From positions 62,001 to 121,204 of the IMG/VR virus record IMGVR_UViG_3300042987_002221: 59,204 bases of DNA. One strand, written 5' to 3'. Origin of the DNA: an uncultured virus (IMG/VR IMGVR_UViG_3300042987_002221) (taxonomy: Duplodnaviria > Heunggongvirae > Uroviricota > Caudoviricetes). Below are positions 1 through 59,204 of this stretch, one piece after another. The notes beneath the pieces are model-generated. The model did not search any database. It was not told where the DNA came from and was given only the letters and a program-made list of their open reading frames with translations. The translations under genes and the position numbers were made by a program. Within the stretch, counting starts at the first letter, position 1. Each line of letters begins with the position of its first letter.

Positions 1-2190
1 ATCAAATCATTATGTGAAGAATATAGCAAAATGGCAGGGTTTGTTCGTGCAGTTCGTGGAAATCAATTCAATGAATCAGCACAGAAGTTAGTAGAAGCAG
101 GATTGAACCATTATGTTTCATTAAGAGAAACATTAGGTAAGATGCGTGGTAATCGTGGATACAATAGTTATTTTGAAAGTTGGACTCCTACATTAATGGA
201 GACTGATGGTGATGAAACTTCCATCAATGAATTGTTTGTTCAAGAGACATTAGATCCAAGAATTGAAAGTGTAATGCCTATTCTTTCTAAATTGAGTAAA
301 AATTTAAGTGAAGTAAAAGAAGTTAAAGAACTAGAAGAATGGGCTAATGGTTTACTTGAAGCACCAGGTGCAGAAACATTAGCACATAACCAATCTACAG
401 CAAAGTCTAATTTAAAGTCATTTGATTTAGAAGAAGACAGTGTAAATGAAGGTTGGTTTGCTGACACATTAAAAAGTGTGGGGAAGGCTGTATTAGACAA
501 GCTGGCCCCAAATGATAAACAATTATTACTAAAACTACAGAGAGATATGGGAGTTCCTACAACCGCTCAACATGGTAAACCATCAATGGCAAGAATGATG
601 AGTGATGAAGAAGTTCAAAAATTAATTGCTGCGGCTAGAAAAGTCAATGCTGGCAGAAATTCTAGTTTATCTGAAGAAGAAGTTGAAGAAAGTGGACTGC
701 AGGCGTATTTAGGAAACAAGAAATACGGCAAAGACGGCATGGATTCATTACGCAAAGCAGGTCGTGAAGGTGCGAGCAAAGAAAAGATGGCAAAGATTCG
801 CGCCAAATATGATAAGTTAGATGAAGAAGGTTTGGGACCAGAACAAAAACGTGTTGGTCAACTTGGACCAACTGAAAAGGTTAAGAAAAATAGTGGTGCC
901 AGAGGTAAACTAGTTGGTGCCAATGAAAGTGTAGAGCAAGGTGTGGCGGAAGGCTCGACTAATAAAACACTGTTTGTTATTTACTATAAAACAGGTAAGG
1001 GATTTGACGCTGGTACTGGAGATGTAGGAATACTTGCATCCAATGAACAAAAAGCAAAAGAAAAATTTGCAAAAAAATATCCTCACTTTATTGTGACTAA
1101 AATAGTAGAAGGTATGAAATATGTTCTTGTTGATTACCGTGGAAATTATTATAAAGGCATGGATAAGTTTGGTAGAAATCTTTCTACTAGAAATCCAGAA
1201 GAAGCCGAAATATTTAATTTAGAGCGTGACGCTAAAGATATAGCATTATGGACTAGAAATAGATTTAAGGCAATACCTTGGTCAGGTCAGCGAGGTGTGG
1301 CGGAAGGCTTGCCTGGTAGTCTAAGTGCTAGTGATTATATGCCGGGAGCAACTTTACCACACACTAACTGGAATTGTATTAAGTGTAGTGGTCATAAGTT
1401 TATGTACAGTTTAGATGGAAAATTAACTAAAGATAATAAAAAAGGTGCAATAAGAGTTAAATGCCCTGATTGTGGCGGTTCTGGGTTAAAGAAACCTGAC
1501 CCCGGTCACGATTATTTTGGTCGAAAGAAAGAGGAAGGTGTGGCGGAAGGCTCTGAGCAAGACCTAGTATATATTTCAAAAGACCGTGCCGAGGCTTTTG
1601 AAGAATGGATGAACAGTGAAGGTCTTGAAACTAATGTTCCTAAAAATGATTATGGAACATATATTGTTTATAATTATTCTAACGAAGATCCTACTTCAAA
1701 ATTATATGCCAGTGAATGGAATGAAAGAAGAGAAGGTGTGGCGGAAGGCACCGATGATCCTAACCCCTCAGCCGGTCCAGGATCTATATCACATTCAACA
1801 CCGGTAAGACGTAATGGCAAAGATGTTGGTGAATTATTTCAAACTAAATCAGGTAGTTGGGGATTCTTTATCAATACGTCAGCCAAAACTAAAGAAGGCT
1901 TTGAGAGCAAAGAAAAAGCACTGGAAGCGATGAAACAACATTTGGGGCAAGGTATGGCGGAAGGCATGGAACAAGAATGGGAAGTAAGTTTTGAACATGG
2001 TCCACATCAATCAGACAGTGTTAAAGTAAAGGCATCTTCTAAAGAGGAAGCTATCTCTAAAGCAAAAGAACAGGCCAAGAAAACATTTAGGACTCAAAGC
2101 CTATCACTAAATTGGGCAAGACCTGTAAAAAAAGGTGTGGCGGAAGGGCAAGAAGACCTTGATGCACTCAAAAAATTAATGGGTAAATAA
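1..2190 (+). CDS. Putative head-internal/prohead-core polyprotein with six GVAEG-delimited boundaries (5' partial)
   Basis: Frame open from base 1; acidic/charged protein with many hydrophobic-x-E-(G/S/A) sites; five modules between repeats, one with CxxC...CxxCxGxG. Confidence 0.6.
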   Translation: MKSLCEEYSKMAGFVRAVRGNQFNESAQKLVEAGLNHYVSLRETLGKMRGNRGYNSYFESWTPTLMETDGDETSINELFVQETLDPRIESVMPILSKLSKNLSEVKEVKELEEWANGLLEAPGAETLAHNQSTAKSNLKSFDLEEDSVNEGWFADTLKSVGKAVLDKLAPNDKQLLLKLQRDMGVPTTAQHGKPSMARMMSDEEVQKLIAAARKVNAGRNSSLSEEEVEESGLQAYLGNKKYGKDGMDSLRKAGREGASKEKMAKIRAKYDKLDEEGLGPEQKRVGQLGPTEKVKKNSGARGKLVGANESVEQGVAEGSTNKTLFVIYYKTGKGFDAGTGDVGILASNEQKAKEKFAKKYPHFIVTKIVEGMKYVLVDYRGNYYKGMDKFGRNLSTRNPEEAEIFNLERDAKDIALWTRNRFKAIPWSGQRGVAEGLPGSLSASDYMPGATLPHTNWNCIKCSGHKFMYSLDGKLTKDNKKGAIRVKCPDCGGSGLKKPDPGHDYFGRKKEEGVAEGSEQDLVYISKDRAEAFEEWMNSEGLETNVPKNDYGTYIVYNYSNEDPTSKLYASEWNERREGVAEGTDDPNPSAGPGSISHSTPVRRNGKDVGELFQTKSGSWGFFINTSAKTKEGFESKEKALEAMKQHLGQGMAEGMEQEWEVSFEHGPHQSDSVKVKASSKEEAISKAKEQAKKTFRTQSLSLNWARPVKKGVAEGQEDLDALKKLMGK
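939..2148 (+). repeat. Six in-frame copies of AGGTGTGGCGGAAGG (G-V-A-E-G)
   Basis: GGT codon at 940, 1294, 1537, 1735, 1951 (GGTATGGCGGAAGG variant) and 2134; spacings 354, 243, 198, 216, 183 nt. Confidence 0.95.
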
Positions 2191-37615: not shown

Positions 37616-37617
37616 GC

Positions 37618-38627: not shown

Positions 38628-38629
38628 AC

Positions 38630-38656
38630 AACAAGGGGAATCATTCCCCTTGTTTT
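38630..38656. terminator. Bidirectional terminator between convergent genes
   Basis: AACAAGGGGA-atcat-TCCCCTTGTTTT. Confidence 0.7.
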
Positions 38657-40428: not shown

Positions 40429-40478
40429 TTTGTCACCTCAATAATAAAGTATTTATAGTTATCAGTGTTATGAAATTA

Positions 40479-42179: not shown

Positions 42180-42199
42180 AATGTATTTATCTGAGACTC

Positions 42200-42228
42200 T
42201 TGACAATAAATACCAGGTGTTATACAAT
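42200..42228 (+). promoter_or_regulatory. Early sigma70-type promoter
   Basis: TTGACAATAAAT...TACAAT with 17-nt spacer, same 5' end as early cassettes. Confidence 0.8.
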
Positions 42229-42258
42229 CAAGCTTAAACGTTAGAAAACGGAGTAAAA

Positions 42259-43446
42259 ATGCCTCGTAAAGCAGCAAAACAAGTCGATACCTCAGTTGTC
42301 AAGGCTCTTGATCCCAGAGATCCTGATACCAAGTACATGGGTGAAGAACCACTGTTTACTGTTCAGCCTAACGAAGCCACGCGAAAGATTAGCCTGGTCA
42401 AAGGCTTCAATTGGTATGGAAGGTTCTACGGGCGTAAAGACGCTAAAGAACTGATTTGCCAATATCTTGACCTTACTGACAAAATTGACAAGGCAAAGTT
42501 GTTTCGCAAGGTTGATGAACGTGATATTACTATCACTACAGCGTGGCTTGCTCGCATGAGCCTGCGCGGTCTGGTTCTGTCAAAAGAAGAATCGGACATG
42601 ATTGAAAAAGAAATTGATGCATTGATCACACCCGTCAAGAAAGAAGCAAAAGTTTCTAAGACGGGGGGCACAAAGCCCGAAGTCAAAGAAGCTCCCAAGC
42701 ATAACGTGCAAGAAGTTATGCGTGAACGTGCCCGTGAGGCTGCTGGAGAACTTGAAGGTGTTCTGGACGACTATATTCTTTCTGGTGCAAAGGCAACGCA
42801 TACTCTGCGCCCGATTGACACCGTAGCAAAATTTAATGTTCTTCCTCAACACATTTCCATTATCAGTGATGTTTGGAAGAAAAAGCAAACTGAGTTTGAA
42901 GAAGTTCTGAAGGGAACCGATGCACAATTGGTTCAGGGTTATAATCATTTTACTCGTACCCAACTCAAAAACATTTCCAAGTTTATTGATCAAGTTTTGG
43001 GTGATTTGAATAGCTACATTAGCGTCAAGAAGGCATCAAAGGCACCGCGTAAGCGTAAGGCAGTTCCTATCGAGAAGCAGGTTGCTAAGATGAAGTTTTT
43101 GAAGGAATTCAAGGACACTGCAACAAAACTGGATTTGGTAAGTTTGCACCCTGTCAAACTTCATGGAGCCAGTGAATGCTATCTCTACGATACAGCCAAG
43201 CGTAAATTGATTTACATGGTTGCCGATGAGTACAGCAAGACCTTCTCAGTGAAGGGCACTACGTTGCTTGGGTTCGACAATATCAAGAGTCAGACCAAAA
43301 CACTGCGTAAGCCGGCTGAACAGATTGCACAAATTCTGAAGTTGGGTAAGCCTGCAGGACGTAAGTACTTCAGTGATATTCGTGCTGTAGCAACTACACC
43401 GAATGGACGTACTAACGAAAACATGATTATCCTTAAAGCTTGGTAA
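42259..43446 (+). CDS. Conserved basic early protein of T4-like phages, function unknown
   Basis: Early-type codon usage; C-terminal VKGTTL.GFD...S..KTLRKP...NGR.NE..IILK. Confidence 0.75.
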   Translation: MPRKAAKQVDTSVVKALDPRDPDTKYMGEEPLFTVQPNEATRKISLVKGFNWYGRFYGRKDAKELICQYLDLTDKIDKAKLFRKVDERDITITTAWLARMSLRGLVLSKEESDMIEKEIDALITPVKKEAKVSKTGGTKPEVKEAPKHNVQEVMRERAREAAGELEGVLDDYILSGAKATHTLRPIDTVAKFNVLPQHISIISDVWKKKQTEFEEVLKGTDAQLVQGYNHFTRTQLKNISKFIDQVLGDLNSYISVKKASKAPRKRKAVPIEKQVAKMKFLKEFKDTATKLDLVSLHPVKLHGASECYLYDTAKRKLIYMVADEYSKTFSVKGTTLLGFDNIKSQTKTLRKPAEQIAQILKLGKPAGRKYFSDIRAVATTPNGRTNENMIILKAW

Positions 43447-43452
43447 TCAACG

Positions 43453-43484
43453 ACCTCTACAGTAAAATGTAGAGGTTATTTTTT
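43453..43484 (+). terminator. Intrinsic terminator
   Basis: ACCTCTACA-gtaaaa-TGTAGAGGT then T-run. Confidence 0.75.
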
Positions 43485-43495
43485 GTGGAGAAATT

Positions 43496-43903
43496 ATGCA
43501 AATTGACTTAAATAAATATCAGCACTTCGTAGAAGCTGTTACCAGTAAGCCTAGCAAGGATGTTGCCGTACTGATTCAGCGTCTACACGATCTATCTCAG
43601 GAGCCCGATCTTAATATCAGTCTATTGATGACCGCTAGCATTGGTCTAGCAAGTGAGGGTGGAGAGTTCAGTGAGATTGTAAAGAAGATGGTTTTTCAGG
43701 GTAAACCCTTTAATGAAGAAAATCGTTTTCATATGAAGCGTGAATTAGGCGACATTATTTGGTATTGGGTCAATGCTTGTAGGGCACTCGGATATGACCC
43801 TAATGATGTTGTTGCAGAAAATGTGAAGAAGTTGGAATCAAGGTATCCGGGAGGACACTTTGATCCTTACTATTCAGAGAATCGTAAAGAAAACGACCTT
43901 TGA
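43496..43903 (+). CDS. mazG: MazG-like nucleotide pyrophosphohydrolase
   Basis: GLASEGGEF.E.VKK..FQG, ELGDI.WY, N..KL..RYP. Confidence 0.88.
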   Translation: MQIDLNKYQHFVEAVTSKPSKDVAVLIQRLHDLSQEPDLNISLLMTASIGLASEGGEFSEIVKKMVFQGKPFNEENRFHMKRELGDIIWYWVNACRALGYDPNDVVAENVKKLESRYPGGHFDPYYSENRKENDL

Positions 43904-43919
43904 ATAAGTAAAATCTTCT

Positions 43920-44300
43920 TCAGTATGTAGGTGACCCACAGCCTGTAAATGTGGCTATAATCCGTCCTCAATTGTGGTGTGACGGTAGATGATGAATACT
44001 GACATCAATTTACAGGACTACCCTACGGGATGCCATAAATGTCTGTCCAATGCACAGAAACATTTCCTGTATCTTAATGGTTGATGCTGCCGGATCATAG
44101 TAATAGCGATAGAGGGTCCGGACTGTTCAAGACTATCCGATGAATAATGTCTTGATATAACAGTGAATATGACAGTTTCCTAGAAATAGGTTGATGAGAC
44201 ATAGGCAATCCTCCATTTTAATAACTGAATTCATCGTCGTAAACGTACCTCAAGAATATTTTTTTAGGTTGAGTAGGTCTATCTACTCGCCTTGACCTAA
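43920..44300 (+). ncRNA. Putative large structured non-coding RNA of unknown class
   Basis: No ORF; about 12 nested helices, cUACGg and GAAA tetraloops, 9-bp alternative pairing; strand inferred from tetraloops. Confidence 0.65.
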
Positions 44301-44369
44301 GAATAACAAATAAGAAATACCGATAATACCGATATCATTTGAATAAATACATGATATAGGTGAAAACAC

Positions 44370-45167
44370 ATGACAATAAGTTCTATTGCTAGTCCGTTAA
44401 ATACTCCATCTGGTCTTACCATCGATGAATTAAAACAAGCATTGTTCAATAACATAAGTTATAGATTAGGTCAGGATATAATTGATCTTGAACTAGATCC
44501 ACAACATTATGAAGCAGCATTAAATTATGCCATAAAGATTTATCGTCAAAGAGCGCAAAATGCCACAGTTGAAACATATACTTTGATGACGGTAATTAAG
44601 AACGTTGATACTTATACCCTACCGGAAGAATTTATTAATGTAAGATCCTTGTTTAGAAGAACAGTGGGTTTAGAAACTGGCCCAAGTTCAACTAGTTTTG
44701 ACCCGTTTAGTAGTGCAATATTGAACACCTATTTGTTAAACTACAACTATACAGGTGGTATGGCAACTTATGATTTTTATGCTGGATACGTTGAATTGGC
44801 TGCACGTATGTTTGGTGGTTATGTAAACTACACGTTTAATCCAGTTACCAAAGTATTAAGAGTTGTACGAGATTTCAAAGGTACTGGTGAGCGAATTTTG
44901 ATTTGGGCTGATATTCAACGTCCAGTAATAGAGTTGTTGCAAGATCCTTATGCAGGTGTTTGGATAGGTGATTATACTTTTGCTGTATTAAAAGGAATCA
45001 TAGGTGAAGCCCGTGAAAAGTTTGGGTCTATCGCTGGTCCTGGTGGCGGAACAACCTTAAATGGTGCTGCTATGAAATCTGAAAGCAAAGCGGATCAAGA
45101 ACGTTTAATTGATGAATTGAAACGTTATGTTGATGGGTCACAACCACTTGCATGGATTCAAGGTTAA
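44370..45167 (+). CDS. gp13: Neck protein, T4 gp13-like
   Basis: YRLG...I..EL, GEAREKF..I.GP.GG.TLNG; late promoter at 44342. Confidence 0.85.
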   Translation: MTISSIASPLNTPSGLTIDELKQALFNNISYRLGQDIIDLELDPQHYEAALNYAIKIYRQRAQNATVETYTLMTVIKNVDTYTLPEEFINVRSLFRRTVGLETGPSSTSFDPFSSAILNTYLLNYNYTGGMATYDFYAGYVELAARMFGGYVNYTFNPVTKVLRVVRDFKGTGERILIWADIQRPVIELLQDPYAGVWIGDYTFAVLKGIIGEAREKFGSIAGPGGGTTLNGAAMKSESKADQERLIDELKRYVDGSQPLAWIQG

Positions 45168-45181
45168 TATAAGAGGTTTAA

Positions 45182-45793
45182 TTGATAATAGGTTTATCTG
45201 GAAGAATAGGTTCCGGCAAAGATACTGTTGCTGATTATTTGGTAAAACAACATGACTTTAAAAGATACAGTTATGCAGGAGTAGTCAAAGATTGTCTGTC
45301 ACTAATATTTGGTTGGGATCGTGAATTACTTAATGGCTATACTGTAGAGAGTAGAAATTTTAGAGAACAACCTGATGTTTGGTGGTCTAAAAGATTATGT
45401 ATAGAAAATTTTTCTCCTAGATTTGCAATGCAACATATCGCAACTGATGTGTTGAGAAAACACTTTCGTGATGAGATTTGGGTTGCAAGTTTAGAATACA
45501 AACTCAAGAACGAAACACAAAACTGTGTTGTTACTGATTGTAGATTTCCAAATGAGTTTTATAGTTTAAAAAATCTAGATGGGATCACAGTTAGAATTGA
45601 ACGTGGTGTAGAACCAAATTGGTATCAATATGCAAAAGATTTGACTAATCAAGATAACTTACAAAAGTTGTCTGAGCTAAATATCCATACCAGTGAATTT
45701 AGTAGTGTTTATTTACCTTATGATTATGTCATCAATAATGATGGCACGATTACTGACCTTTATTCTAAGATAGAATCATTGGTCAACTACTAA
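45182..45793 (+). CDS. gp1: Deoxynucleoside monophosphate kinase, T4 gp1-like
   Basis: IIGLSG..GSGKDT, PR..MQ, DCRFPNE, H.SE, I.NDG. Confidence 0.9.
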   Translation: MIIGLSGRIGSGKDTVADYLVKQHDFKRYSYAGVVKDCLSLIFGWDRELLNGYTVESRNFREQPDVWWSKRLCIENFSPRFAMQHIATDVLRKHFRDEIWVASLEYKLKNETQNCVVTDCRFPNEFYSLKNLDGITVRIERGVEPNWYQYAKDLTNQDNLQKLSELNIHTSEFSSVYLPYDYVINNDGTITDLYSKIESLVNY

Positions 45794-46126
45794 GTCTCCT
45801 CGTTTCCAATTTACTTCTTTTCGTTTTATAACTTCAATGCAGTTCAAACATACTGATCTAAGATTAGTGTGGTTGATGTTTTCTAAATTACCATCAACAT
45901 GAAAGACTGTAATCTGTGATGTAAATAATGAATTAAACCCACATAGATCACATTTTGATTTTTTCTTGTACCCACTTTTTGTCCAAGTGGGTTTTCTTGC
46001 CTTTAATTTTTTTGAAATTCTACCGCAACCATCACAAGTTTTTCTGTAATATGTTTTATCATTTTTATGATAATTTACAGCACAGTGATTTTTATTACAG
46101 ATTGTGCAAATAGGCCTAAGATTCAT
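45776..46126 (-). CDS. HNH-like zinc-binding protein
   Basis: Four CxxC pairs, H.DGN..N...NL..VCLNC. Confidence 0.7.
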   Translation of the reverse strand: MNLRPICTICNKNHCAVNYHKNDKTYYRKTCDGCGRISKKLKARKPTWTKSGYKKKSKCDLCGFNSLFTSQITVFHVDGNLENINHTNLRSVCLNCIEVIKRKEVNWKRGDLVVDQ

Positions 46127-46242
46127 TCTATATTTATGTAAAACCTTTAAAAGGCACGGTAATACCGACTTTTTGTAATAAACAAATAAATATCATTACA
46201 AACAGGTAGTAAACCTCAAAATTTTACATAAAGGAAATAATT

Positions 46243-49200
46243 ATGGCCCTTACATCACCAGGCGTAGAAGTTAGTGTAATTGACCAAAGTCAATATTTAC
46301 CAGCTCCAACAAATTCAGTACCATTCGTATTAGTTGCTACTGCACAAGATAAAGCAGACCCCAATGGTGTGGGTGTTGCTGCTGCTACAACCGCAGCAAA
46401 TGCAGGAAGAGTTTTTGAAGTAACTAGTCAACGTGATCTAGTAACACTATATGGTACACCATTTTTCTATCAGACATCAAATGGTACACCTATTCAAGGT
46501 TATGAACTCAATGAGTATGGTCTATTGGCAGCATATTCATTGTTAGGCGTAACAAATCGTTGCTTTGTTTTGAGAGCAGATATTGATTTGGCAAGTTTAG
46601 TAGGTCAAACAAGCAGACCATCAGGTCTTCCTGATGCAGGTAGTTATTGGTTAAATGCTACTACATCAACATGGGGAATATATCAGTGGAACAAAACTAC
46701 TGGTAAATTTACACTACAAAGCCCAATAGTAATTACTGATAGCGGTTCATTATCAGGCAGTGTACCTATAGCAAGCATCGGCAATATCGGTGATTATGCG
46801 GTAAATGCGTTAGACATAAATGAATATGCTCCAGCTTCAGCACAAGCAGGACAATATTTTTACAAGACTACAGACAATGTTTGGGTAGTTTTAGGATCTG
46901 ATGATTGGGCTGTAGATGTTCCAACTGTTCAAGGAACTGAAGCTCCAACTGGAACAATAACAGGTACTTTCACTATCAGTTTATCAGGTGATGTTTCATT
47001 ATCAGTTGCAGTTTCAGGAAATATCGAATCCGTTGCTACAGCCATTAACAACCTCGCTGTGACATATCTAACAGCAGAAGTTCGTGATGGTAAGTTATGT
47101 GTATTCTTGACTTACCCAGAAGTTAATACCCCAACATCAGGATCTCCTGTAAGCACCCCAAGATATTTAAGTTTTGCAAACACTTCAGGTACACCACTAG
47201 CTACTTTGGGTATTACTGCTGCAACTAACTATTATCGTCCAATTGTTCAATGGGGAACAAGTGCTCAACAACCATTATGGCAAACAGGTCAAACATATTC
47301 TAGACCAAACGGCTCAGTTTGGTTAAAAGCAGGTGGATCTGGTTTAGCTCCAGTTGTGGCTGAATGGGATAGTACTTTAGTTTCTTGGCAAAACAAAACA
47401 GTATCTTTAGCAGTAAGCGATGCTGCTGCTACTGCTGCGCTAGATTCGACCGGTGGACAGGCTATACCAGCAGGTACAGTTTACGGTCAATACAATTTCA
47501 ACAACAATTTATTCCCAACTGCTCCTGTTTATCTATGGGAAAGATTTGCATCTGGTGACACAGTAATTACTGGTTCAGTAGAAAATCCAGATTTCTTAGC
47601 TACAGTTGCTCCTGCTGATTTGGAAATCGGAAGAACATACAAAATTACTACAGTAGGTTCTACAACATGGACAGCATGCGGTGCGGCTGATAACAACCTA
47701 AACACAGTTTTCGTTGCTACTGCTACTGGTTCAGGAACTGGTGTTGCACAACCTGTATATCAATTGACCGCTCAAGTTTCAACTCCAGGTTCTTCTTCAT
47801 TATCTACAACATATACTGTTCCTGGTCTTGCTGGAATAAGTGACGCAACTGATTTTGTAACACAATGGTTGGCTGCAGGTATTCCTTATACAGACGCAAA
47901 TGTAACTACTGATGGTGCAATACAGTTGATACATACTGCAGGTGGTTCTATTATCCTCAGTGATAAGATTACTAGTGGTGCTGGAATAGGTAGATCAAGT
48001 GCATTATTAGAATTAGCCGGTTTCGTAGCTGGTACTACTGATGGTGTCAAAAACTATAATGCTTTTAATACAACATATGCTGCGGTAGCTACAACAGGTG
48101 GATCTGGTAGTAGCTTAACAATTACTGCGATTGCATCAGGATATGGTTATTACACTGTTAACGCAAATACTTTCGGATCTGCTGGTTCAGGTTATGTAGT
48201 TGGTGATAGTGTTACTGTAGATGGATCTCTTTTGGGAGGTGAAACTACTACTAATGATTTAGTAGCTACAGTATTACAAGTAGGTGGATCTGGAAACGTA
48301 CAACGTATCGCATTTGAAAGTGGTACTCCAGATAATCTTTATGCAGTAGAACTAAGCAACTGGAGAGAATTTGCTTATACTGCAAATGAAGGTGCACCAG
48401 TCAATACACCATCAAATGGTACAAATTGGTTCTACAGCGAAGTAGATCAAGTTGACATCATGATAAATTTTGATGGCGCTTGGAGAGGTTATAGAAATCA
48501 AGATTATGACCTTAATGGATTCCCATTAACAGGAAGCAACAGCACAGATCCTAACGGTCCAATTGTCACTGCAAGTGCACCAACAACACAGAGCGATGGC
48601 ACTGATTTGGTATATGGTGATATTTGGATTGATACAAGTGATCTAGATAACTATCCAATCATTTATCGTTGGCAACAAGCTGATGGTGTAGATCAATGGG
48701 TTTTAATTGATAATACCGACCAAACTAATCCAAGTGGAATAGTATTTGCTGATGCACGTTGGTCATCATCTGGTGCAATAAATCCAGTAGATGATCCTAT
48801 CCCAACAATAAAAAGCTTGCTAACAAGTGATTATGTTGATTTAGATGTTCTAGATGTAAGTTTGTATCCAACTGGAATGTTGTTATTCAACACACGTAGA
48901 TCAGGTTATAATGTGAAAGAATTTAACTCAAATTATTTCAACAATGCAAACTTCCCTGACGCAGGTGCATTTGATGCAGGTGATCCAACTAATACTGCTA
49001 ACTTACCTGAGTTCCCATACACATGGGTAAGCGTAAGTGGATTACAATCTAATGGTGCTCCTTATATGGGTCGTAAGGCTCAAAGAGCAATGGTTGTTGA
49101 AGCAATGAGAGCAACAATTGATACTAACGTTACTATTAGAGATGAAGATGTATTCTTCAACTTACTAGCAGCACCTAACTATCCAGAACTTCAACCTAAC

Positions 49201-50010
49201 ATGGTTGTATTGAATGCTGACAGAGGTGAAACAGGTTATATTATCGGCGATACCCCAATGGGATTAGCTGATAACGCAACTGCAATTTCTGCTTGGGCTA
49301 ATAACACTGCTGGTGCAACAAGTACAGGTGAAGATGGATTAGTAACAAGAAATACATATTTAGGTCTCTTCTATCCAAGTGGAATAGCAAGTGATTTAAG
49401 TGGTAATTTAGTTGCTGTTCCTGCATCACATATGATGTTAAGAACATTCATCAGAAATGACAGTATTGCTTATCCTTGGTTTGCAGCAGCAGGTACACGT
49501 AGAGGTTTAATTGACAATGCTACAAATATTGGATATGTCAATCGTCAAACTGGTGAATTCCAGGTAGTAAGAACTAGTTTGGGAATCAGAGATGTATTGT
49601 ATACAAACTTTATCAACCCATTAGTATTCTTTACTGGTCAAGGTTTGTTGAATTTTGGCAACAAGACCAGTTTCAACTCACAGAGTGCATTGGATAGAAC
49701 AAACGTTGCAAGATTGATTGCTTACTTAAGAAGACAATTGACTATTGCTGCAAGACCGTTTATCTTCGAACCAAATGATTCATTAACTCGTGGACAAATT
49801 TCAGGAGTTATATCAACTCTAATGTTAGATACACAATCAAAACGTGGTATCTATGATTATTTGGTGATATGCGATGAATCAAACAATACGCCTGCAAGAA
49901 TTGATAGAAATGAATTGTGGGTAGATGTTGCAATTGAACCGGTTAAAGCTGTTGAATTTATTTACATACCAGTAAGAATTCTCAACACAGGAGAAATAGC
50001 AGCATTATAA
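46243..50010 (+). CDS. gp18: Tail sheath protein (expanded, 1255 aa)
   Basis: SPGVEV...D.S start; PWFA.AG..RG, FEPND..TR, CDESNN...IDRNEL, EFIYIP. Confidence 0.93.
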   Translation: MALTSPGVEVSVIDQSQYLPAPTNSVPFVLVATAQDKADPNGVGVAAATTAANAGRVFEVTSQRDLVTLYGTPFFYQTSNGTPIQGYELNEYGLLAAYSLLGVTNRCFVLRADIDLASLVGQTSRPSGLPDAGSYWLNATTSTWGIYQWNKTTGKFTLQSPIVITDSGSLSGSVPIASIGNIGDYAVNALDINEYAPASAQAGQYFYKTTDNVWVVLGSDDWAVDVPTVQGTEAPTGTITGTFTISLSGDVSLSVAVSGNIESVATAINNLAVTYLTAEVRDGKLCVFLTYPEVNTPTSGSPVSTPRYLSFANTSGTPLATLGITAATNYYRPIVQWGTSAQQPLWQTGQTYSRPNGSVWLKAGGSGLAPVVAEWDSTLVSWQNKTVSLAVSDAAATAALDSTGGQAIPAGTVYGQYNFNNNLFPTAPVYLWERFASGDTVITGSVENPDFLATVAPADLEIGRTYKITTVGSTTWTACGAADNNLNTVFVATATGSGTGVAQPVYQLTAQVSTPGSSSLSTTYTVPGLAGISDATDFVTQWLAAGIPYTDANVTTDGAIQLIHTAGGSIILSDKITSGAGIGRSSALLELAGFVAGTTDGVKNYNAFNTTYAAVATTGGSGSSLTITAIASGYGYYTVNANTFGSAGSGYVVGDSVTVDGSLLGGETTTNDLVATVLQVGGSGNVQRIAFESGTPDNLYAVELSNWREFAYTANEGAPVNTPSNGTNWFYSEVDQVDIMINFDGAWRGYRNQDYDLNGFPLTGSNSTDPNGPIVTASAPTTQSDGTDLVYGDIWIDTSDLDNYPIIYRWQQADGVDQWVLIDNTDQTNPSGIVFADARWSSSGAINPVDDPIPTIKSLLTSDYVDLDVLDVSLYPTGMLLFNTRRSGYNVKEFNSNYFNNANFPDAGAFDAGDPTNTANLPEFPYTWVSVSGLQSNGAPYMGRKAQRAMVVEAMRATIDTNVTIRDEDVFFNLLAAPNYPELQPNMVVLNADRGETGYIIGDTPMGLADNATAISAWANNTAGATSTGEDGLVTRNTYLGLFYPSGIASDLSGNLVAVPASHMMLRTFIRNDSIAYPWFAAAGTRRGLIDNATNIGYVNRQTGEFQVVRTSLGIRDVLYTNFINPLVFFTGQGLLNFGNKTSFNSQSALDRTNVARLIAYLRRQLTIAARPFIFEPNDSLTRGQISGVISTLMLDTQSKRGIYDYLVICDESNNTPARIDRNELWVDVAIEPVKAVEFIYIPVRILNTGEIAAL

Positions 50011-50037
50011 TAGAATGGGCGTAACAGCCCATTCTAT
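50010..50037 (+). terminator. Hairpin between sheath and tube genes
   Basis: ATAGAATGGGC-gtaaca-GCCCATTCTAT; no U-tract. Confidence 0.5.
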
Positions 50038-50068
50038 ATGTGATAAATAAAATTAGGAGATAACTAAT

Positions 50069-50677
50069 ATGGCAAATTTAAAGAATTTATCAGTTGGCAG
50101 TGACGGCAATCAAACTCTTTTGATGCCTAAATTACAATATAGGTTTAGGCTTGTTTTTGAAAATTTTGGTGGCGGAGAAACAGCAGTATTGACAAGGCAA
50201 GTAGTTGATTGTTCTAGACCCAGTTTAACTTTTCAGACAATTAATTTACCAGTTTATAACTCTACAGTTTATATAGCAGGTAAACATACATGGGCTACCA
50301 TGTCAATAAACTTACGTGATGATATTGAAGGTGGAGTTACTAAACAAGTAGGTGCACAGGTTCAAGCACAGTTAGATATGTTAGAGCAATCAGGTGCAAG
50401 AGCAGGGGCGGATTATAAATTTAGACTCAAGTTACAAATGCTAGATGGTGCAAATGGTGCATTTAATCCAGGCGTACTTGAAGAATGGGATCTTGAAGGT
50501 TGTTTTTTGACTGCCGTTAACTACAACACAGTAAATTATGGTACAAGTGAAGCTGTACTTATTGCACTTACTGTTCAATATGATAATGCAATACAAACAG
50601 TAGGCGGCGGAATAAGTGAAGAATTTCAACCGGCTAGAGGTTCTGATTTAGGTACTGCTACAGGTGACGGGGCTTAA
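50069..50677 (+). CDS. gp19: Tail tube protein
   Basis: Follows sheath; YRFR.., AGK.TW, W.L.GCF, T..YD; GATAAATA at 50042. Confidence 0.85.
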   Translation: MANLKNLSVGSDGNQTLLMPKLQYRFRLVFENFGGGETAVLTRQVVDCSRPSLTFQTINLPVYNSTVYIAGKHTWATMSINLRDDIEGGVTKQVGAQVQAQLDMLEQSGARAGADYKFRLKLQMLDGANGAFNPGVLEEWDLEGCFLTAVNYNTVNYGTSEAVLIALTVQYDNAIQTVGGGISEEFQPARGSDLGTATGDGA

Positions 50678-50692
50678 TACCACTACAAAATA

Positions 50693-51565
50693 ATGACAAT
50701 TACATTACGTGATTTTACACACGCCTCTAAAATATTTAGGGGCGGTAATTATGCTAAGGCACCCAAACTTAAATTTTTATTTCATGTATATTTTGCATTA
50801 AATGAAAATTCGTACAACAACGGTACACTGGGGCCTTTAGCGTCTGACCAGCCATTTGGTGTTTTAGTAAAAACAGTTAAATTGCCTAGTTTTCAAGTAA
50901 CTACACAAGAATTAAATCAATATAACCGCAAAAGAATAGTACAAACTAAAATAAAATACGAAAATATTGATATTATATTCCATGACGACAGTAGTAATTT
51001 AATAACAGGATTATGGAATCAGTATTACACATACTATTACAAAGATAGTTTGAATTATAAAAATATGCAATTCATTGGTAGTAGAGGATATACTCCACCT
51101 GAAAGTGCAACTACAACTCCTGAAAGTAGAAAAAACATTTATTCACCTGATATAAATGACAGTACAAGTTGGGGTTATATCGGTGAAACAACAACGCAAT
51201 CGGCCTTTAAAAAAGCGTTTTTCAAATATATTACAATTTTTGGATTCAATCAACACAAATTTACCTCATATACATTAGTAAATCCTATAATCAATAGATT
51301 AAATCATGATACATATAATTATAGTGAAGGTGGGGGAACAATGGAAATTGGTATGAACATAGGTTATGAAACTGTAATATATAATCAAGGTGCAATGGAT
51401 GGTCAAGATCCACAAAACATAGTAACAGGATTTGGATTAGAAGCTAATTACGACAAAACTTTAAGTCCCATAACTAAACCAGGTGAAAATAGATTAGTTC
51501 AAATGAATGACGGAACTGTACCTGCTAATGGTGGATTTATAATAGACAGTATTACACAAAGATAA
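50693..51565 (+). CDS. Tail tube-like/baseplate tube initiator protein
   Basis: VK...LP, NQYNRKR, I.FHDD, L.NP.I pattern. Confidence 0.65.
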   Translation: MTITLRDFTHASKIFRGGNYAKAPKLKFLFHVYFALNENSYNNGTLGPLASDQPFGVLVKTVKLPSFQVTTQELNQYNRKRIVQTKIKYENIDIIFHDDSSNLITGLWNQYYTYYYKDSLNYKNMQFIGSRGYTPPESATTTPESRKNIYSPDINDSTSWGYIGETTTQSAFKKAFFKYITIFGFNQHKFTSYTLVNPIINRLNHDTYNYSEGGGTMEIGMNIGYETVIYNQGAMDGQDPQNIVTGFGLEANYDKTLSPITKPGENRLVQMNDGTVPANGGFIIDSITQR

Positions 51566-53801: not shown

Positions 53802-56207
53802 ATGGATTTTAAATCATTATTAGACCAATTAAACCAATTGTCTGAGGCTAAAGAAGAAACAAAGACAGGTGTAAAACACAAAGCCAAACCAGGACGTTAT
53901 GGCGGCTATGATCCAGAAACTAACCCTGACAAAGATGACGATGAAAAGAAAGCTGAACCAGCCGCAAAACGTGGTCGTGGTCGTCCTAAGAAAGGTGCTG
54001 ATAGCGAAACTGGTGAGGTAAAGAAGTGGGATACTGATACACTACAGAGTTGGATTGTTGGTAATAAACCAAAGAAATTACCTGGTAAAGCCAGTGTAAA
54101 ACATACTATGAAAGAAGAAAGTGTAGCAGAAGGTACTGATAAAAAATCTTCATTGAAAGATTGGATGAAAGTTGTTTCAGAAAATGTACCTCCAGGGATG
54201 AAACCTCTAGCTATGATGAATCCACAAAACAAACAAGTTGGAGCAGGTGTTTTAACTAGCAAAAATCCAGCAGTTCAAAAAATGTTAGGTGGCATAGATC
54301 CAAAAGATGTACAAATTGTACAAACTACTGCACAAACTTCAACTCAACCAGCTGCAGGTGCAACAGGTCAAGCACCAACTGGAACACAACCAATGAAGGA
54401 AAAAGAAGGTGATTATTCTGCTAAAAAAGCAAGAGCAGGAAAAGATATCGGTAAGCCAGGTAAGCAATTCAGTAAGATCGCTACAAGTGCAGGCAAACGT
54501 TATGGTTCAAAGGCAGCAGGCGAACGTGTTGCAGGTGCGGTTCTTAAAAATCTAAGAAAAGCCAATGAAGGTGTGGCGGAAGGCTATTCACTAAAGAAAA
54601 CTAATGTTGAAAAAACATTTCATCCAGGTGATCCAGAGGATTTCGGCAGTGTTGATATGACACGAAAAGATACAGATTACGAAATTATTAATAACAAAAC
54701 AGGTCAAGTAGTAGGTACTGCAAGTTGGACTACTAATGATTATTTTGGACCAGGGGCAATAAAAATTACCATGAAGAATGGTGCTACACGTTATCTCGAT
54801 ATTAAGAATAGTGACAAGGGTAATCCACAAAGTGCCTTCAATCGTTTTGTAAAAGATCCAAGTACTTCTAAAAAATATAAAGAGCAAGGTGTGGCGGAAG
54901 CAGACATTCCATCTGATCAAATGGACATGGGTGCAGGTTTAGGTGCCGGTAGAAGCGATAAAACGTTTGAAGGCAAAAAAGCTAAGCCTGATTTCTTAGA
55001 TATTGATAAAGATAAAAACAAAAAAGAATCTATGAAAAAAGCAGCAAGTGACAAGAAAAAGAAAAAAGTTACTGAAAGTTCACATAGACATTCTGCTGCT
55101 AGACTAATGGGTAAATCACACGCACTAGCAAAAGAAGGATACAATTGCCGTTATGAAGATATGGATGAAGCAAGAGAATATCATGAAGGCTTCAAAGAAG
55201 GTTTAGATGAATGCTATGGTCAGGGTGTATACGAAACTGCACCAGCAATGCCACCAGCAACAGTTTCTGGAATGGCAAGTGCAGCAATGCCTACACTAGA
55301 AGACGAAATGGACATGTATGAAATGGATAGAACAGAATACATGAGACATAAGGCAAGCACCACACCAGGTGATACATTCAAGGCATTTGGACAAACATTC
55401 AAAGACACAGAAGTATTAGAAACTGATAGTTTCTTTGAAAGTTTAGATAATCAACTACAGGCACTTTTAGAAAGTGAACAAGTTGATGAAGGTATGACTG
55501 TTTCTATAAGCAAAGGTCAACAAGGAATGCCTGACTCAGTAAGCGTTACTGCTCAAGATGCGGAAGCTGAACAACTTTTAGGCTTGATTAAAACTGCTGG
55601 TTTAGGCTTGTTCGGCGATCAACAGTCTAGTGATTATGGTGCAAGTGATCAAGGTAAAGAATCACATGGGGATATTGAAGTGGTAGGTGATCATGATGGA
55701 ATGATGTCAATCATGAAAAAACTAACAGGTCAATCTGACAGTCAAGATTACGCTGATGAAGAAGGTGAAGAGGAAGAAACTTGTGATTCATGCGGTGAAT
55801 ATGAAAGTGATTGTGGATGTGATCACGAGGAACAAGTTGATGAAGTTGAAAATGACGAACAACGTGAATTTCAAGTAAGTGAAGACAATCCTCCTGATAC
55901 AGATGCAGCCGAAACTACTGCTGATGAAGAAGCCGAAGCAGCCGAAGATCAAGCATTAGCAACTCAAAATGTAGAGGAAGAGTTGAATGAATGGGCAAAT
56001 GATGCAGGGCAAAGTCTTGAAGAGTTCAAAGAAGAAACATTCACAACTGATGATGAGTTCATGATCCAAACAATTGCAGGTGGTTTGAATAAACCTAAAT
56101 CAACAGGACAAACTACTATCCCTGTAATTGCAGGACAAAACGATAGAATGGGATATTCTACTAATGAATCTATTGGTGATTGGAAAAAATTAGCAGGACT
56201 CAGATAA
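53802..56207 (+). CDS. Large acidic putative prohead-core/internal protein carrying one GVAE-delimited module
   Basis: Very E/D-rich, many hydrophobic-x-E sites, AT-hook-like RGRGRPKK, ends KKLAGLR. Confidence 0.7.
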   Translation: MDFKSLLDQLNQLSEAKEETKTGVKHKAKPGRYGGYDPETNPDKDDDEKKAEPAAKRGRGRPKKGADSETGEVKKWDTDTLQSWIVGNKPKKLPGKASVKHTMKEESVAEGTDKKSSLKDWMKVVSENVPPGMKPLAMMNPQNKQVGAGVLTSKNPAVQKMLGGIDPKDVQIVQTTAQTSTQPAAGATGQAPTGTQPMKEKEGDYSAKKARAGKDIGKPGKQFSKIATSAGKRYGSKAAGERVAGAVLKNLRKANEGVAEGYSLKKTNVEKTFHPGDPEDFGSVDMTRKDTDYEIINNKTGQVVGTASWTTNDYFGPGAIKITMKNGATRYLDIKNSDKGNPQSAFNRFVKDPSTSKKYKEQGVAEADIPSDQMDMGAGLGAGRSDKTFEGKKAKPDFLDIDKDKNKKESMKKAASDKKKKKVTESSHRHSAARLMGKSHALAKEGYNCRYEDMDEAREYHEGFKEGLDECYGQGVYETAPAMPPATVSGMASAAMPTLEDEMDMYEMDRTEYMRHKASTTPGDTFKAFGQTFKDTEVLETDSFFESLDNQLQALLESEQVDEGMTVSISKGQQGMPDSVSVTAQDAEAEQLLGLIKTAGLGLFGDQQSSDYGASDQGKESHGDIEVVGDHDGMMSIMKKLTGQSDSQDYADEEGEEEETCDSCGEYESDCGCDHEEQVDEVENDEQREFQVSEDNPPDTDAAETTADEEAEAAEDQALATQNVEEELNEWANDAGQSLEEFKEETFTTDDEFMIQTIAGGLNKPKSTGQTTIPVIAGQNDRMGYSTNESIGDWKKLAGLR
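54569..54900 (+). repeat. Two further copies of AGGTGTGGCGGAAG flanking a 318-nt in-frame module
   Basis: GGT codons at 54570 and 54888. Confidence 0.95.
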
Positions 56208-56290: not shown

Positions 56291-59204
56291 ATGGCTAAAC
56301 AAAATATTGATTTTGGTTCATTTCCAAACGACATCAACGCTGATGCTATACGCACAGCTTTCCAAAAAACCCAACAAAATTTTGATGAGTTGTATTTAAG
56401 AGCATCAGGTGCGAGTGGTACAAGTGGTGCATCAGGTACCAGTGGTATTAGTGGTTTTTGCGGTATAAGTGGCTTCAGTGGTACAAGTGGATTAAATGGA
56501 ACCTCAGTAACACTTGCAGGTACAGTACCAGATTACACTTTTTTACCAAATGGTGCTCCGGCAGGAACACTTTATATTGTTATTAATTCAGGTGGCGGAT
56601 ACAATGCAGGTGATGGAGCAGTAAGTAACGGGGACGACACTTGGGGTAATATTGGGCCGATACAAGGTCCATCCGGAGTTAGTGGAGCATCAGGTATAAG
56701 CGGATTTAGTGGTAGAAGTGGATTCAGTGGCAGATCTGGTACCAGTGGTTTTAGTGGTTCAGGTATAAGTGGTTTCAGTGGATTCAGTGGAACAAGTGGA
56801 TTCAGTGGTATAAGTGGATTAAATGGTACTTCTGTTACTCTAGCAGGTTCAGTAGTAGATTACACTTATTTACCAAATGGCACTCCAGCAGGAACTCTTT
56901 ACATTATACTTAATTCAGGTGGCGGATACAATGCAGGTGATGGAGCAGTAAGTAACGGAGACAATACTTGGAGTAATGTTGGACCAATACAAGGACCATC
57001 TGGCGTCAGCGGTACAAGCGGATTTTCGGGTGCATTAGGTATAAGTGGATTCAGTGGCGTAAGTGGTGAAAGTGGCGCAAGTACTAGTGGATTCAGTGGT
57101 CTAAGCGGGTTAAGTGGCTTTTCAGGGATATCTGGTGAAAGTGGATTCAGTGGTGTAAGTGGCTTCAGTGGTAGAAGTGGATTTAGTGGCACAAGTGGCT
57201 TCAGCGGCACAAGTGGATTTAGTGGCACAAGTGGATTTAGTGGCACAAGTGGATTCAGTGGCTTTTCAGGGGCATCTGGTGAAAGTGGTTTTAGTGGTTT
57301 TAGTGGTGTAAGTGGATTCAGCGGAACAAGTGGATTCAGTGGTACCAGTGGTTTTAGTGGTAGAAGTGGATTCAGTGGCACATCTGGATTTAGTGGCACA
57401 TCTGGATTCAGTGGAGTAGGTACAAGTGGATTCAGTGGCGTAAGTGGATTCAGCGGTACAGGTACAAGTGGATTCAGTGGTTTTTCTGGAACATCTGGTG
57501 AAAGTGGATTCAGTGGTGTAAGTGGCTTTAGCGGTGTAAGTGGTTTTAGTGGTAGAAGTGGATTCAGCGGTGTAAGTGGCTTCAGTGGAGTTAGTGGATT
57601 CAGTGGTGTAGGTACAAGTGGATTCAGTGGCGTAAGTGGATTTTCAGGGACATCTGGTGAAAGTGGATTCAGTGGAAGAAGTGGATTCAGTGGTTTAGGT
57701 GGATCTAGCGGTTTTTCTGGAATAAGTGGCTTTTCGGGGACAGCTGGTGAAAGTGGATTTAGCGGTGTAAGTGGATTCAGTGGCAGAAGTGGATTCAGTG
57801 GGGTATCTGGAACAAGTGGATTCAGTGGTATAAGTGGATTCAGTGGCAGAAGTGGATTCAGTGGGACTTCAGTTACAATAGCTGGATCAGTAATAGATTA
57901 TACTTATTTACCAAACGGTACCCCGGCAGGAACACTTTACATTATACTTAATTCAGGTGGCGGATACAATGCAGGTGATGGAGCAGTAAGTAACGGAGAC
58001 AATACTTGGAGTAATATAGGACAATTACAAGGTCCATCCGGCTTTAGTGGTTTTAGCGGTAGATCTGGTTTTAGCGGTACATCTGGCTTCAGTGGATCGA
58101 TTGGTGTAAGTGGATTCAGTGGTGTAAGTGGATTCAGTGGTGTAAGTGGATTTAGTGGTGTAAGTGGATCAACTGGATCAGGTATAAGTGGTTTTAGTGG
58201 CGTAAGTGGATTCAGTGGTGTAAGTGGATTCAGTGGCTTCAGCGGCTTCAGCGGCTCAGGGGTAAGTGGATTCAGTGGTGTTAGTGGTTTTAGTGGTAGA
58301 AGCGGTTTTAGTGGTGTAAGTGGATTCAGTGGTGTAAGTGGATTCAGTGGTGTAAGTGGATTTAGTGGTAATTCTGTTACTCTTGCTGGATCAGTAATAG
58401 ATTATACTTATTTACCAAATGGTACTCCGATAGGAACTCTTTATGTCATTCTTAATTCAGGTGGCGGATACAATGCAGGTGATGGAGCAGTAAGTAACGG
58501 AGACAATACTTGGAGTAATGTTGGACCAATACAAGGTCCATCTGGCTTTAGTGGTTTCAGCGGTACATCTGGTTTCAGCGGTACATCTGGTTTCAGTGGT
58601 ACAAGTGGATTCAGTGGAACAAGTGGATTCAGTGGAACAAGTGGATTCAGTGGAACAAGTGGATTCAGCGGTATATCTGGCTTCAGCGGTAGAAGTGGTT
58701 TCAGTGGCGTAAGTGGTTTCAGCGGTGTTAGTGGATTCAGTGGTTTCAGTGGATCAGGTGTAAGTGGCTTCAGTGGTTTCAGTGGATCAGGTGTAAGTGG
58801 CTTCAGCGGCACAAGTGGCTTCAGCGGTATATCTGGCTTCAGCGGTGTAAGTGGATTCAGCGGTGTAAGTGGATTCAGCGGTATATCTGGCTTCAGCGGT
58901 GTAAGTGGCTTCAGTGGTTTCAGTGGATCAGGTGTAAGTGGCTTCAGTGGTTTCAGTGGATCAGGTGTAAGTGGCTTCAGCGGCACAAGTGGCTTCAGCG
59001 GCACAAGTGGATTCAGCGGCACAAGTGGCTTCAGCGGTGTAAGTGGATTCAGCGGTGTAAGTGGATTCAGCGGTATATCTGGCTTCAGCGGTGTAAGTGG
59101 CTTCAGTGGTTTCAGTGGATCAGGTGTAAGTGGCTTCAGCGGCACAAGTGGCTTCAGCGGTACAAGTGGATTCAGTGGTACAAGTGGATTCAGCGGTATA
59201 TCTG
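56291..59204 (+). CDS. Giant (Ser-Gly-X)n collagen-like fibre protein with gp9/gp10-like N-terminal anchor (3' partial, absent from ORF track)
   Basis: GATAAATA at 56278; MAKQNIDFG..PND...D.IR.AF.K...NF.ELY; AGT-GGA-TTC-type triplets in one frame to window end. Confidence 0.85.
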   Translation, partial: MAKQNIDFGSFPNDINADAIRTAFQKTQQNFDELYLRASGASGTSGASGTSGISGFCGISGFSGTSGLNGTSVTLAGTVPDYTFLPNGAPAGTLYIVINSGGGYNAGDGAVSNGDDTWGNIGPIQGPSGVSGASGISGFSGRSGFSGRSGTSGFSGSGISGFSGFSGTSGFSGISGLNGTSVTLAGSVVDYTYLPNGTPAGTLYIILNSGGGYNAGDGAVSNGDNTWSNVGPIQGPSGVSGTSGFSGALGISGFSGVSGESGASTSGFSGLSGLSGFSGISGESGFSGVSGFSGRSGFSGTSGFSGTSGFSGTSGFSGTSGFSGFSGASGESGFSGFSGVSGFSGTSGFSGTSGFSGRSGFSGTSGFSGTSGFSGVGTSGFSGVSGFSGTGTSGFSGFSGTSGESGFSGVSGFSGVSGFSGRSGFSGVSGFSGVSGFSGVGTSGFSGVSGFSGTSGESGFSGRSGFSGLGGSSGFSGISGFSGTAGESGFSGVSGFSGRSGFSGVSGTSGFSGISGFSGRSGFSGTSVTIAGSVIDYTYLPNGTPAGTLYIILNSGGGYNAGDGAVSNGDNTWSNIGQLQGPSGFSGFSGRSGFSGTSGFSGSIGVSGFSGVSGFSGVSGFSGVSGSTGSGISGFSGVSGFSGVSGFSGFSGFSGSGVSGFSGVSGFSGRSGFSGVSGFSGVSGFSGVSGFSGNSVTLAGSVIDYTYLPNGTPIGTLYVILNSGGGYNAGDGAVSNGDNTWSNVGPIQGPSGFSGFSGTSGFSGTSGFSGTSGFSGTSGFSGTSGFSGTSGFSGISGFSGRSGFSGVSGFSGVSGFSGFSGSGVSGFSGFSGSGVSGFSGTSGFSGISGFSGVSGFSGVSGFSGISGFSGVSGFSGFSGSGVSGFSGFSGSGVSGFSGTSGFSGTSGFSGTSGFSGVSGFSGVSGFSGISGFSGVSGFSGFSGSGVSGFSGTSGFSGTSGFSGTSGFSGIS
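56501..58540 (+). repeat. Four copies of a 57-aa globular unit interrupting the SGX repeats
   Basis: Units at 56501, 56828, 57866, 58370: SVT(L/I)AG(T/S)V.DYT.LPNG.P.GTLY...NSGGGYNAGDGAVSNGD.TW.N.G..QGP. Confidence 0.9.

Follow-up and report, generated by a model that had tools for sequence, protein, structure and literature searches.

A short in-frame DNA joint flanks exchangeable modules in two carrier proteins of a T4-like freshwater phage and is a candidate processing site of putative head-cargo polyproteins

Why should the same short DNA repeat bracket a single protein module in one phage gene and recur between unrelated modules in a second gene 52 kb away? The question is raised by a stretch of 59,204 nucleotides (the window) that comprises bases 62001-121204 of the 121,204-base uncultured virus record IMGVR_UViG_3300042987_002221 in IMG/VR (36% G+C; CheckV completeness 35%). 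The record carries T4-type genes for a gp32-like single-stranded DNA-binding protein, UvsX, tail sheath, tube, head-closure, large terminase, a gp15-like gene, a DnaB-like helicase and others, and the public runs that contain parts of the stretch are freshwater or lake metagenomes (20 of 23 listed rows, from 15 studies; two of the rows possibly represent the sample of origin). In gene B (53802..56207, + strand), which encodes an 801-aa protein (P0001), the repeats AAGGTGTGGCGGAAGG and AAGGTGTGGCGGAAG lie at 54568 and 54886, and the 13-mer GGTGTGGCGGAAG is present exactly at 54570 and 54888. Gene A (+ strand; 1..2190 in the window, with its start upstream at contig position 61311) carries exact copies of the 13-mer at 940, 1294, 1537, 1735 and 2134 and a copy with one mismatch at 1951. 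Every copy in the two genes is read in frame as Gly-Val-Ala-Glu (GVAE), or as GMAE at 1951. A prediction made from the sequence alone (the original prediction) had reported the pair in gene B and the presence of the same repeat in a gene 52 kb away; the letters of the pair are confirmed, and gene A holds six copies, including the one with the mismatch. We think it fairly probable that genes A and B encode head-cargo polyproteins in which this linker serves both as a protease site and as the recombination joint for exchangeable cassettes.

The repeat is far more frequent than the composition of the DNA would produce. Allowing up to 2 mismatches, the window contains nine matches to the 13-mer vs 0.39 expected, and none of 100 shuffles reached nine; the ninth match, at 43976 with 2 mismatches, is probably due to chance. 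Over the whole 121,204-base contig there are eight matches at up to 1 mismatch, all on the + strand, and a control with the reversed pattern gave none.

In gene B the repeat marks the borders of a discrete cassette. The left linker (54570..54581, within the extended repeat 54568-54583) and the right linker (54888..54899, followed by Ala) are both spelled GGT GTG GCG GAA, and between them lies a cargo module of 102 residues (54582..54887; GYSLKKTNV...KKYKEQ). The 106-codon segment described originally corresponds to these 102 codons plus one linker, and our recalculation agrees that excision of 54570-54887 (318 nt) is neutral to the reading frame. The picture of a globular module in a low-complexity host protein is likewise borne out by structure prediction. 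Modeled alone with AlphaFold2 from a 24-sequence alignment, the module reaches a mean pLDDT of 87.9 and a pTM of 0.75 and is predicted to form five beta strands followed by C-terminal helices, whereas full-length gene B (6 sequences) has a mean pLDDT of 41.9, with 590 of 801 residues below 50 and the module blocks scoring highest. Most of the carrier is thus of low confidence or predicted to be disordered.

Relatives of gene B in IMG/VR (11 matching stretches, 8 of them confirmed, giving 8 loci) differ in what they hold at this site. The closest, at 98% identity (L014), has two other modules of about 50 and 110 aa in place of the window's module, and in a DNA alignment of the two, homology ends and restarts exactly at the repeats. 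A relative at 65% identity (L017) has a 50-aa module, then the same YSLKK module and then further modules. The site is empty at 47% identity in L015 (..LRKGVNEA↓ERPSDD..) and at 56% identity in L016 (..LRQKTNEG↓DIPSDQ..), where the arrow marks the position of the joint; orthologs without the module, which had been proposed as a check on the cassette, therefore exist. Both empty sites resemble a degenerate linker. Three further loci (L019-L021) encode a different protein that has residues 10-130 in common with gene B and carries modules where the window has the linker-like site SVAEG (54120..54134), written in the ordinary AT-rich codons AGT GTA GCA GAA GGT. A second native site of the same type, QVDEG (55479..55493), is conserved in the carrier, with E563 and G564 invariant in 6/6 orthologs, and at its position L017 has AVAEG in non-canonical codons. 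To judge from these alignments, the entry points of cassettes are pre-existing linker-like sites.

These comparisons qualify the original proposal that the module was integrated with direct repeats. It does behave as a cassette, but the repeats are a shared in-frame linker, the same in many genomes, and not target-site duplications. A transposon with target-site duplication was rejected because the same 13-mer flanks unrelated modules across genes and genomes and because the 102-aa module has no transposase or integrase domain. We also rejected an intein, since the module starts with G-Y-S and ends with K-E-Q followed by G, and so lacks a Cys, Ser or Thr start and a His-Asn junction; the modules also have no sequence in common, which again argues against inteins. 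On the evidence of the sequence itself, we also discounted an internal translation start and a frameshift site.

The same organization is found on a larger scale in gene A, a 959-aa carrier in which a conserved core (residues 1-542) is followed by an array of five unrelated modules of 114, 77, 62, 68 and 57 aa (940..2145). The six linkers listed above separate and bound these modules, and a C-terminal amphipathic tail (GQEDLDALKKLMGK, 2146..2187) stands directly behind the last one. When compared by BLASTP with all of the fetched loci, the five modules found two partial relatives only. Stretches encoding gene A relatives are common (104 of 106 matches in IMG/VR), and the 80 loci kept yielded 62 distinct open reading frames (ORFs), 53 of which have their stop codon within the locus and are 510-969 aa long. 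In 25 of these 53 complete orthologs the sequence ..LVGANES(V/T)E leads directly into the short amphipathic tail; in the other 28 there is extra sequence and then a hydrophobic-x-E↓G-QEDL... at the end. The amphipathic tail is present in 47 of the 53, at least one GVAE in 20 and at least two in 8. An ortholog at 96% identity (L162) shares the junction ESVEQGVAEG and the tail GVAEGQEDLDALKKLMGK with gene A but has two other modules instead of five. Taken together, the contents of the gene A and gene B sites indicate that the arrays occupy apparent native linker-type sites in both genes. At E<=1, Pfam gave no family above its cut-off for either carrier or for the six modules taken singly; module 2 of gene A (1306-1536) includes a CxxC...CxxC zinc-ribbon-like piece, for which matches to Anti-TRAP (E 1.8e-4) and DnaJ CXXCXGXG (0.019) were among those below the cut-off.

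What is conserved at the joint is not the peptide alone. In the six frames of the contig, GVAE is spelled GGT GTG GCG GAA in 7/7 occurrences, for which the contig's own codon usage gives P=0.0027 (GTG is 9.7% of Val codons and GCG 6.7% of Ala codons). In the loci fetched by protein similarity, a sample unbiased towards the repeat, the same 12-mer is used at 30 of 37 distinct GVAE sites, whereas the native-looking carrier sites, SVAEG at 54120 and AVAEG in L017, use ordinary codons. A scan of IMG/VR for an exact 14-mer found at least 136 stretches; in the 80 loci fetched among the matches listed there are 103 distinct sites, and at 99 of these GVAE is read in an open frame. Extended outward, the consensus becomes (K/E)(K/E)-Q-GVAE-G, with CAA ahead of the 13-mer and GGC behind it, and nothing is conserved beyond about -6/+17. 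Other lineages use other spellings and peptides, such as GVTEG throughout P0017 and QDMAEG in P0005, and keep hydrophobic-x-E↓G. The joint is conserved at the DNA level well beyond what the peptide needs. What it separates is diverse: 67 modules between two canonical linkers, 39-366 aa in length, fall into 56 BLASTP clusters.

Such conservation could have another origin, namely that the 13-17 conserved bases are the site of a dedicated enzyme, either a site-specific recombinase or a homing-type endonuclease, so that cassettes move as in an integron and the peptide is secondary. The spelling is conserved far past the peptide's requirements, and this holds over loci of 33-67% GC. The identity is also shorter than efficient homologous recombination would need, and a NUMOD3-motif protein, probably a homing endonuclease, is encoded at 26016-26669 (- strand). 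However, we found no recombinase or integrase beside either gene, and the letters of the repeat form neither a palindrome nor an attC-like structure. The lineages with GVTEG and QDMAEG, in which hydrophobic-x-E↓G is retained, point to the peptide as the constrained layer. We consider a dedicated enzyme quite improbable; it is in any case compatible with the linker being a protease site and would replace the recombination step only.

Assemblies of independent samples show the repeat as a property of many loci. In four of four independent freshwater runs, contig depth spikes only in the two linker bins (in run X6, 129.7 and 217.2 in these bins vs 37.4 in the module), and in runs X3-X6 many contigs diverge into unlike sequence at 54568 and 54900, while one contig spans exactly 54568-54900. 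The depth spikes and the divergence follow from a repeat that is common to many loci and from its effect on assembly. Joints that skip 290-295 bases between the linkers were also seen, with only 18-25 matching letters on the shorter side and flagged as unreliable; we read them as other modules between the same linkers rather than as deletions. The assembly graphs of these independent lake metagenomes (X3-X6) break at the linkers, at 54570-54606 and 54866-54902, so that the joints may be points of fragmentation or chimerism in contigs of such phages.

These breaks bear on the possibility that the repeats are nothing but chance, an assembly artefact or what remains of a local tandem duplication. 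Short repeats do arise by chance, assemblies may be chimeric at repeats, and contigs do break at the linkers. Set against this are the number of matches in the window relative to the 0.39 expected, the recurrence of the same architecture in independent contigs of many samples, the lack of relationship between the modules, which make 56 clusters out of 67, and the fact that the sites are all in frame. An origin by chance, artefact or duplication is already contradicted by the repeat counts, the independent loci and the module clusters, and we regard it as almost certainly wrong.

To see where else the module occurs, its 102 residues were compared by phmmer with 1.84 billion representative proteins at a threshold of E<=1e-3. 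There were 35 matches, 29 of them at E<=1e-10, in proteins of 107-1601 aa with the module at positions 10 to 1071, and most copies have GVAE-type flanks. In P0003 (1334 aa), which is a string of about 13 modules, one is 99% identical to the module in the window. The varied content of the orthologs and these 35 protein contexts uphold the original view of a dispersed element rather than a local tandem duplication. The start of the module could be placed in 33 of the 35 homologs, and in 30 of the 33 the first Gly of the module is immediately preceded by [LIVMF]-x-E, a pattern that persists behind unrelated upstream sequence. Four homologs (P0023, P0024, P0026 and P0029) end right after ..KYK[DK], exactly where the next linker begins in the strings; the contigs of three of them measure 182 kb (P0023), 2,995 nt (P0029) and 1,417 nt (P0026). 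Three homologs (P0025, P0026 and P0027) carry the module directly behind a short leader, MRAKEFITE↓G, MKLTEILSE↓G and MRFKEFISE↓G, respectively. The stand-alone and leader-led genes that were checked lie on contigs of up to 204 kb, so that at least these are not cut-off fragments.

The prohead protease gp21 of T4 has the cleavage consensus (L/I)-x-E. Proteases of the gp21 type in T4, phiKZ and SPN3US cleave on the C-terminal side of a Glu that completes a short motif (PMC9026906, PMC5694885). In T4 the scaffold core is degraded, and the leaders of IPI-III and Alt are clipped by gp21 (PMC9958956). The T4 capsid-targeting sequence (CTS) is MKTYQEFIAE (PMC8442874), and the leaders of P0025-P0027 resemble it. 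The T4 internal proteins have only this leader in common, are injected, and block distinct GmrSD enzymes (PMC12373910, PMC3012670). In the window the module, unlike those of P0025-P0027, follows an internal linker and not an N-terminal leader. Gene B itself starts with MDFKSLLDQLNQLSE (53802..53846), which ends in L-S-E↓A and resembles the T4 CTS; L13, E15 and A16 are invariant in 6/6 aligned orthologs (..QLSE↓A), and this N-terminus is plausibly a capsid-targeting leader.

Large related records suggest a link to head maturation. Among seven that were searched, Peptidase_S77, the T4 gp21 family, is present in three, G001 (300 kb), G004 and G007 (259 kb), and its neighbours in each are a scaffold-like gene and a Gp23-type capsid gene. 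Exact copies of the repeat occur in G001 and G004, and G007 is tied in only by an ortholog of gene A at 60% identity. The three capsid proteins contain ..HLAE↓S.., ..YLKE↓N.. and ..LLAE↓S.., 38 residues ahead of a conserved GVQPM, and these motifs would be where maturation cleavage is expected. The scaffold of G004 has ..MLAE↓G.. near its end. The scaffolds terminate in ..NVIDLKRLAGL (G001), ..NIVDIRKLAGLTK (G004) and ..NVIDIKRLAGL (G007), which gives the pattern (V/I)(I/V)D(L/I)(K/R)(R/K)LAGL, and the C-terminal tail of gene B (SIGDWKKLAGLR, 56169..56204) resembles them: gene B ends in ..IGDWKKLAGLR and its orthologs in ..KKLAG(L/I). HNH-like genes stand beside the capsid gene in G001 and G007.

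Sites of the expected type are also enriched in the carriers. Gene A has 13 [LIVM]xE[GA] motifs vs 2.63 expected from composition-preserving shuffles (z 6.6), which places it first among 129 proteins, and gene B has 6 vs 2.03 (z 2.9, rank 5). This result bears on a second alternative, in which multi-domain virion or 'polyvalent' proteins remain uncleaved, the linkers being simple flexible connections, the modules work together as a single long chain, and the hydrophobic-x-Glu is a by-product of a charged linker composition. Phage proteins of 2 to 15 domains, probably packaged, have been described (PMC5512222), and the carriers are indeed Glu-rich. However, the enrichment in gene A exceeds what its composition gives, and hydrophobic-x-E↓G precedes the module in 30/33 homologs whose upstream sequences are otherwise unrelated. 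A stand-alone module gene whose end coincides with the expected start of the next linker, and three homologs in which the module directly follows a leader like the T4 CTS, are also difficult to reconcile with a permanent joint, and Pfam detected none of the typical polyvalent enzyme domains. We therefore judge uncleaved joints to be unlikely.

The model that we favour is that genes A and B are carriers of a T4-like freshwater jumbo phage and hold variable in-frame strings of small, separately folding modules. Each module boundary is the linker (K/E)-Q-G-V-A-E-G, nearly always written ..CAA GGT GTG GCG GAA GGC... A carrier would enter the prohead via its leader-like N-terminus, its scaffold-like C-terminal tail or both, and a prohead protease of the T4 gp21 type (S77) would then cut the string at V-A-E↓G. 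The freed modules would stay in the head as internal proteins and enter the host with the DNA, where they may counter host defences in the manner of T4 Ip1-3. Exchange of cassettes would take place at the short identical linkers through homologous recombination by the phage itself, and this would also account for the lasting canonical DNA spelling: once mutated, a linker would cease to spread its module.

Several observations weigh against this model. The contig, at its 35% completeness, has no Peptidase_S77 protease, scaffold or capsid gene, and the protease link thus rests on the relatives. The 'head protein' label, which we infer from a weak PHROG virion match, the scaffold-like C-terminal tail and the leader-like N-termini, draws on a weak virion association in both genes: gene A matches phrog_13484, 'virion structural protein', at E 4.7e-6, and gene B matches an unknown-function PHROG family only. 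The tail of gene B is identical to a scaffold tail at 7/11 positions, a BLASTP match with an E of 0.5 when taken alone, and the tail pattern, found just twice when the contig is read in six frames, once at the end of gene A and once at the end of gene B, was defined post hoc. Three of the 33 homologs (P0021, P0022 and P0030) have no hydrophobic-x-E ahead of the module. Four of the 103 sites found with the 14-mer are outside an open frame, in loci that reach 67% GC, and some of the single exact matches are probably chance. The T4 late-promoter motif TATAAATA is found once in the window vs 6.9 expected from shuffles, and not near gene A or B; the phage may use a different late-promoter signal. 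The module also has no recognisable fold relative. Finally, 13 to about 20 identical bases are very short for homologous recombination: the cassette-flanking PeSL (promoter-early stem-loop) motifs of T4-type phages measure about 100 bp, and for T4 the quoted requirement is a patch of less than 50 bp (PMC2839356).

Other searches were neutral. The module matched no Pfam or PHROG family; Foldseek against the PDB (best E 0.08) and BFVD (best E 0.015) gave no usable match, the best Z of a wide VIA-align search (6.1) was within the stated noise range, and ESM Atlas contained no usable neighbour. The uracil-DNA glycosylase inhibitor Ugi appeared in a few weak fold rows, at E 0.1-0.7, which are not usable. 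Gene B had no blastn match in 50,697 phage records, and tblastn against the same records gave one weak 42-residue match in an unannotated record, so that no cultured relative emerged from these comparisons. A predicted complex of the relatives' capsid protein with the last 60 residues of gene B scored 0.07 against a mark of 0.32 and has no bearing either way. Scans for sigma-70-type promoters and for terminators stayed at shuffle level.

How do these carriers compare with known systems? One of the closest likenesses is to IPI, IPII, IPIII and Alt of T4, which are small unrelated proteins with a common short peptide ending in hydrophobic-x-Glu and whose set varies between close relatives; the leader-led homologs of the module come close to MKTYQEFIAE, and related phages have a gp21-type protease. 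However, each T4 internal protein has its own gene and a CTS that is removed by gp21, whereas here the modules are strung in frame inside large carriers and the peptide, conserved as DNA, flanks each module on either side as an internal linker. Packaging here may also use the C-terminal scaffold-like tail, and cleavage and injection, established for T4, are proposed by analogy.

The exchange of cassettes has a close counterpart in the PeSL cassettes (PMC2839356, PMC4122927), in which short conserved DNA motifs flank variable ORFs at the points where close relatives diverge. In T4-type phages, modules are shuffled by way of such short conserved motifs (PMC2839356), and exchange by the phage's own homologous recombination is proposed for both systems. 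PeSLs differ in being intergenic and in comprising a promoter and a stem-loop, whereas the joint here is 13-17 bases long (about 20 with its weaker flanks), lies in a reading frame and encodes a peptide.

The inner-body and ejection proteins of phiKZ, 201phi2-1 and SPN3US, which are processed at S/A/G-X-E or A-X-E (PMC5694885, PMC9026906), are likewise jumbo-phage head proteins cut after Glu, sometimes at several sites, by a gp21-related protease; for genes A and B such cleavage would be the counterpart. The excerpts of these papers do not describe them as strings of swappable unrelated modules or their sites as DNA repeats, and our comparisons, which in 50,697 phage records gave one weak tblastn match, revealed no sequence relationship between them and genes A and B. 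Polyvalent proteins also combine many unrelated domains in one polypeptide, are highly mosaic and are probably delivered with the DNA (PMC5512222). They are defined by enzyme domains (metallopeptidase, ADP-ribosyltransferase and nucleases), none of which was found here, and no uniform linker or prohead-protease site between their domains is described in the excerpts of that paper. Unlike these known systems, the carriers of the window have one in-frame joint, conserved as DNA, on both sides of the modules. Among open-access papers and bioRxiv we found no description of such a joint peptide or polyprotein arrangement.

A broader proposal, which we put forward tentatively, is that the 13-17-base joint may be, as a peptide, the prohead-protease cut site and, as DNA, the recombination joint of an open, integron-like library of at least dozens of head-cargo modules, shared community-wide in freshwater T4-like jumbo phages. 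Every head-targeted protein could then take up modules at any of its native protease sites, and the spelling would be kept because only canonical joints are copied, making the joint a self-propagating in-frame linker.

Other features of the carrier and its surroundings deserve mention. Gene B contains an AT-hook-like basic stretch, KRGRGRPKK (53964-53990, residues 55-63), that is invariant in 6/6 orthologs and matches Pfam AT_hook at an E of 0.74, below the cut-off; it may bind DNA inside the head. A Cys cluster, CDSCGEYESDCGCDHE (55779-55826, residues ~660-675), in which C661, C664 and C671 are invariant in 6/6 orthologs, may form a metal site, the surrounding region being otherwise acidic and of low confidence. 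Directly after gene B, at 56291-59203, is a collagen-like tail-fibre gene with 971 aa before the window ends and many PHROG tail-fibre hits. The remaining features lie upstream of the window, in contig coordinates. A MoxR-like AAA ATPase stands beside a DUF2201 putative metallopeptidase with a VWA domain at 48492-50968 (L010:6492-8965), and a papain-family C1 peptidase is encoded at 16286-17131; these are further proteases that might in principle act on the linkers. The minus-strand block at 19172-33390 (L011, L012) consists of sugar and LPS-type modification genes, with two sulfotransferases, a DegT aminotransferase, an epimerase, FkbM and other methyltransferases, a GT25 glycosyltransferase and a 2OG-Fe(II) oxygenase. 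A 1108-aa protein of RCC1 repeats (18 repeat hits) adjoins giant ORFs of 3195 and 2707 aa; this group occupies 33433-36759 and 36845-46432 (- strand), and 132-8255 (+ strand).

If the model holds, these phages would be able to load reshuffled small proteins into the capsid without a separate gene, promoter or targeting signal for each, because a single linker would be cut site and exchange point together. The idea of the T4 internal proteins as injected anti-defence weapons would then cover a far greater cargo pool, spread over the whole community. The conserved joint offers a search handle for hundreds of candidate injected proteins in metagenomes and points to a natural way of loading phage heads with foreign proteins, and the module families that it delimits form a candidate list for new anti-defence functions.

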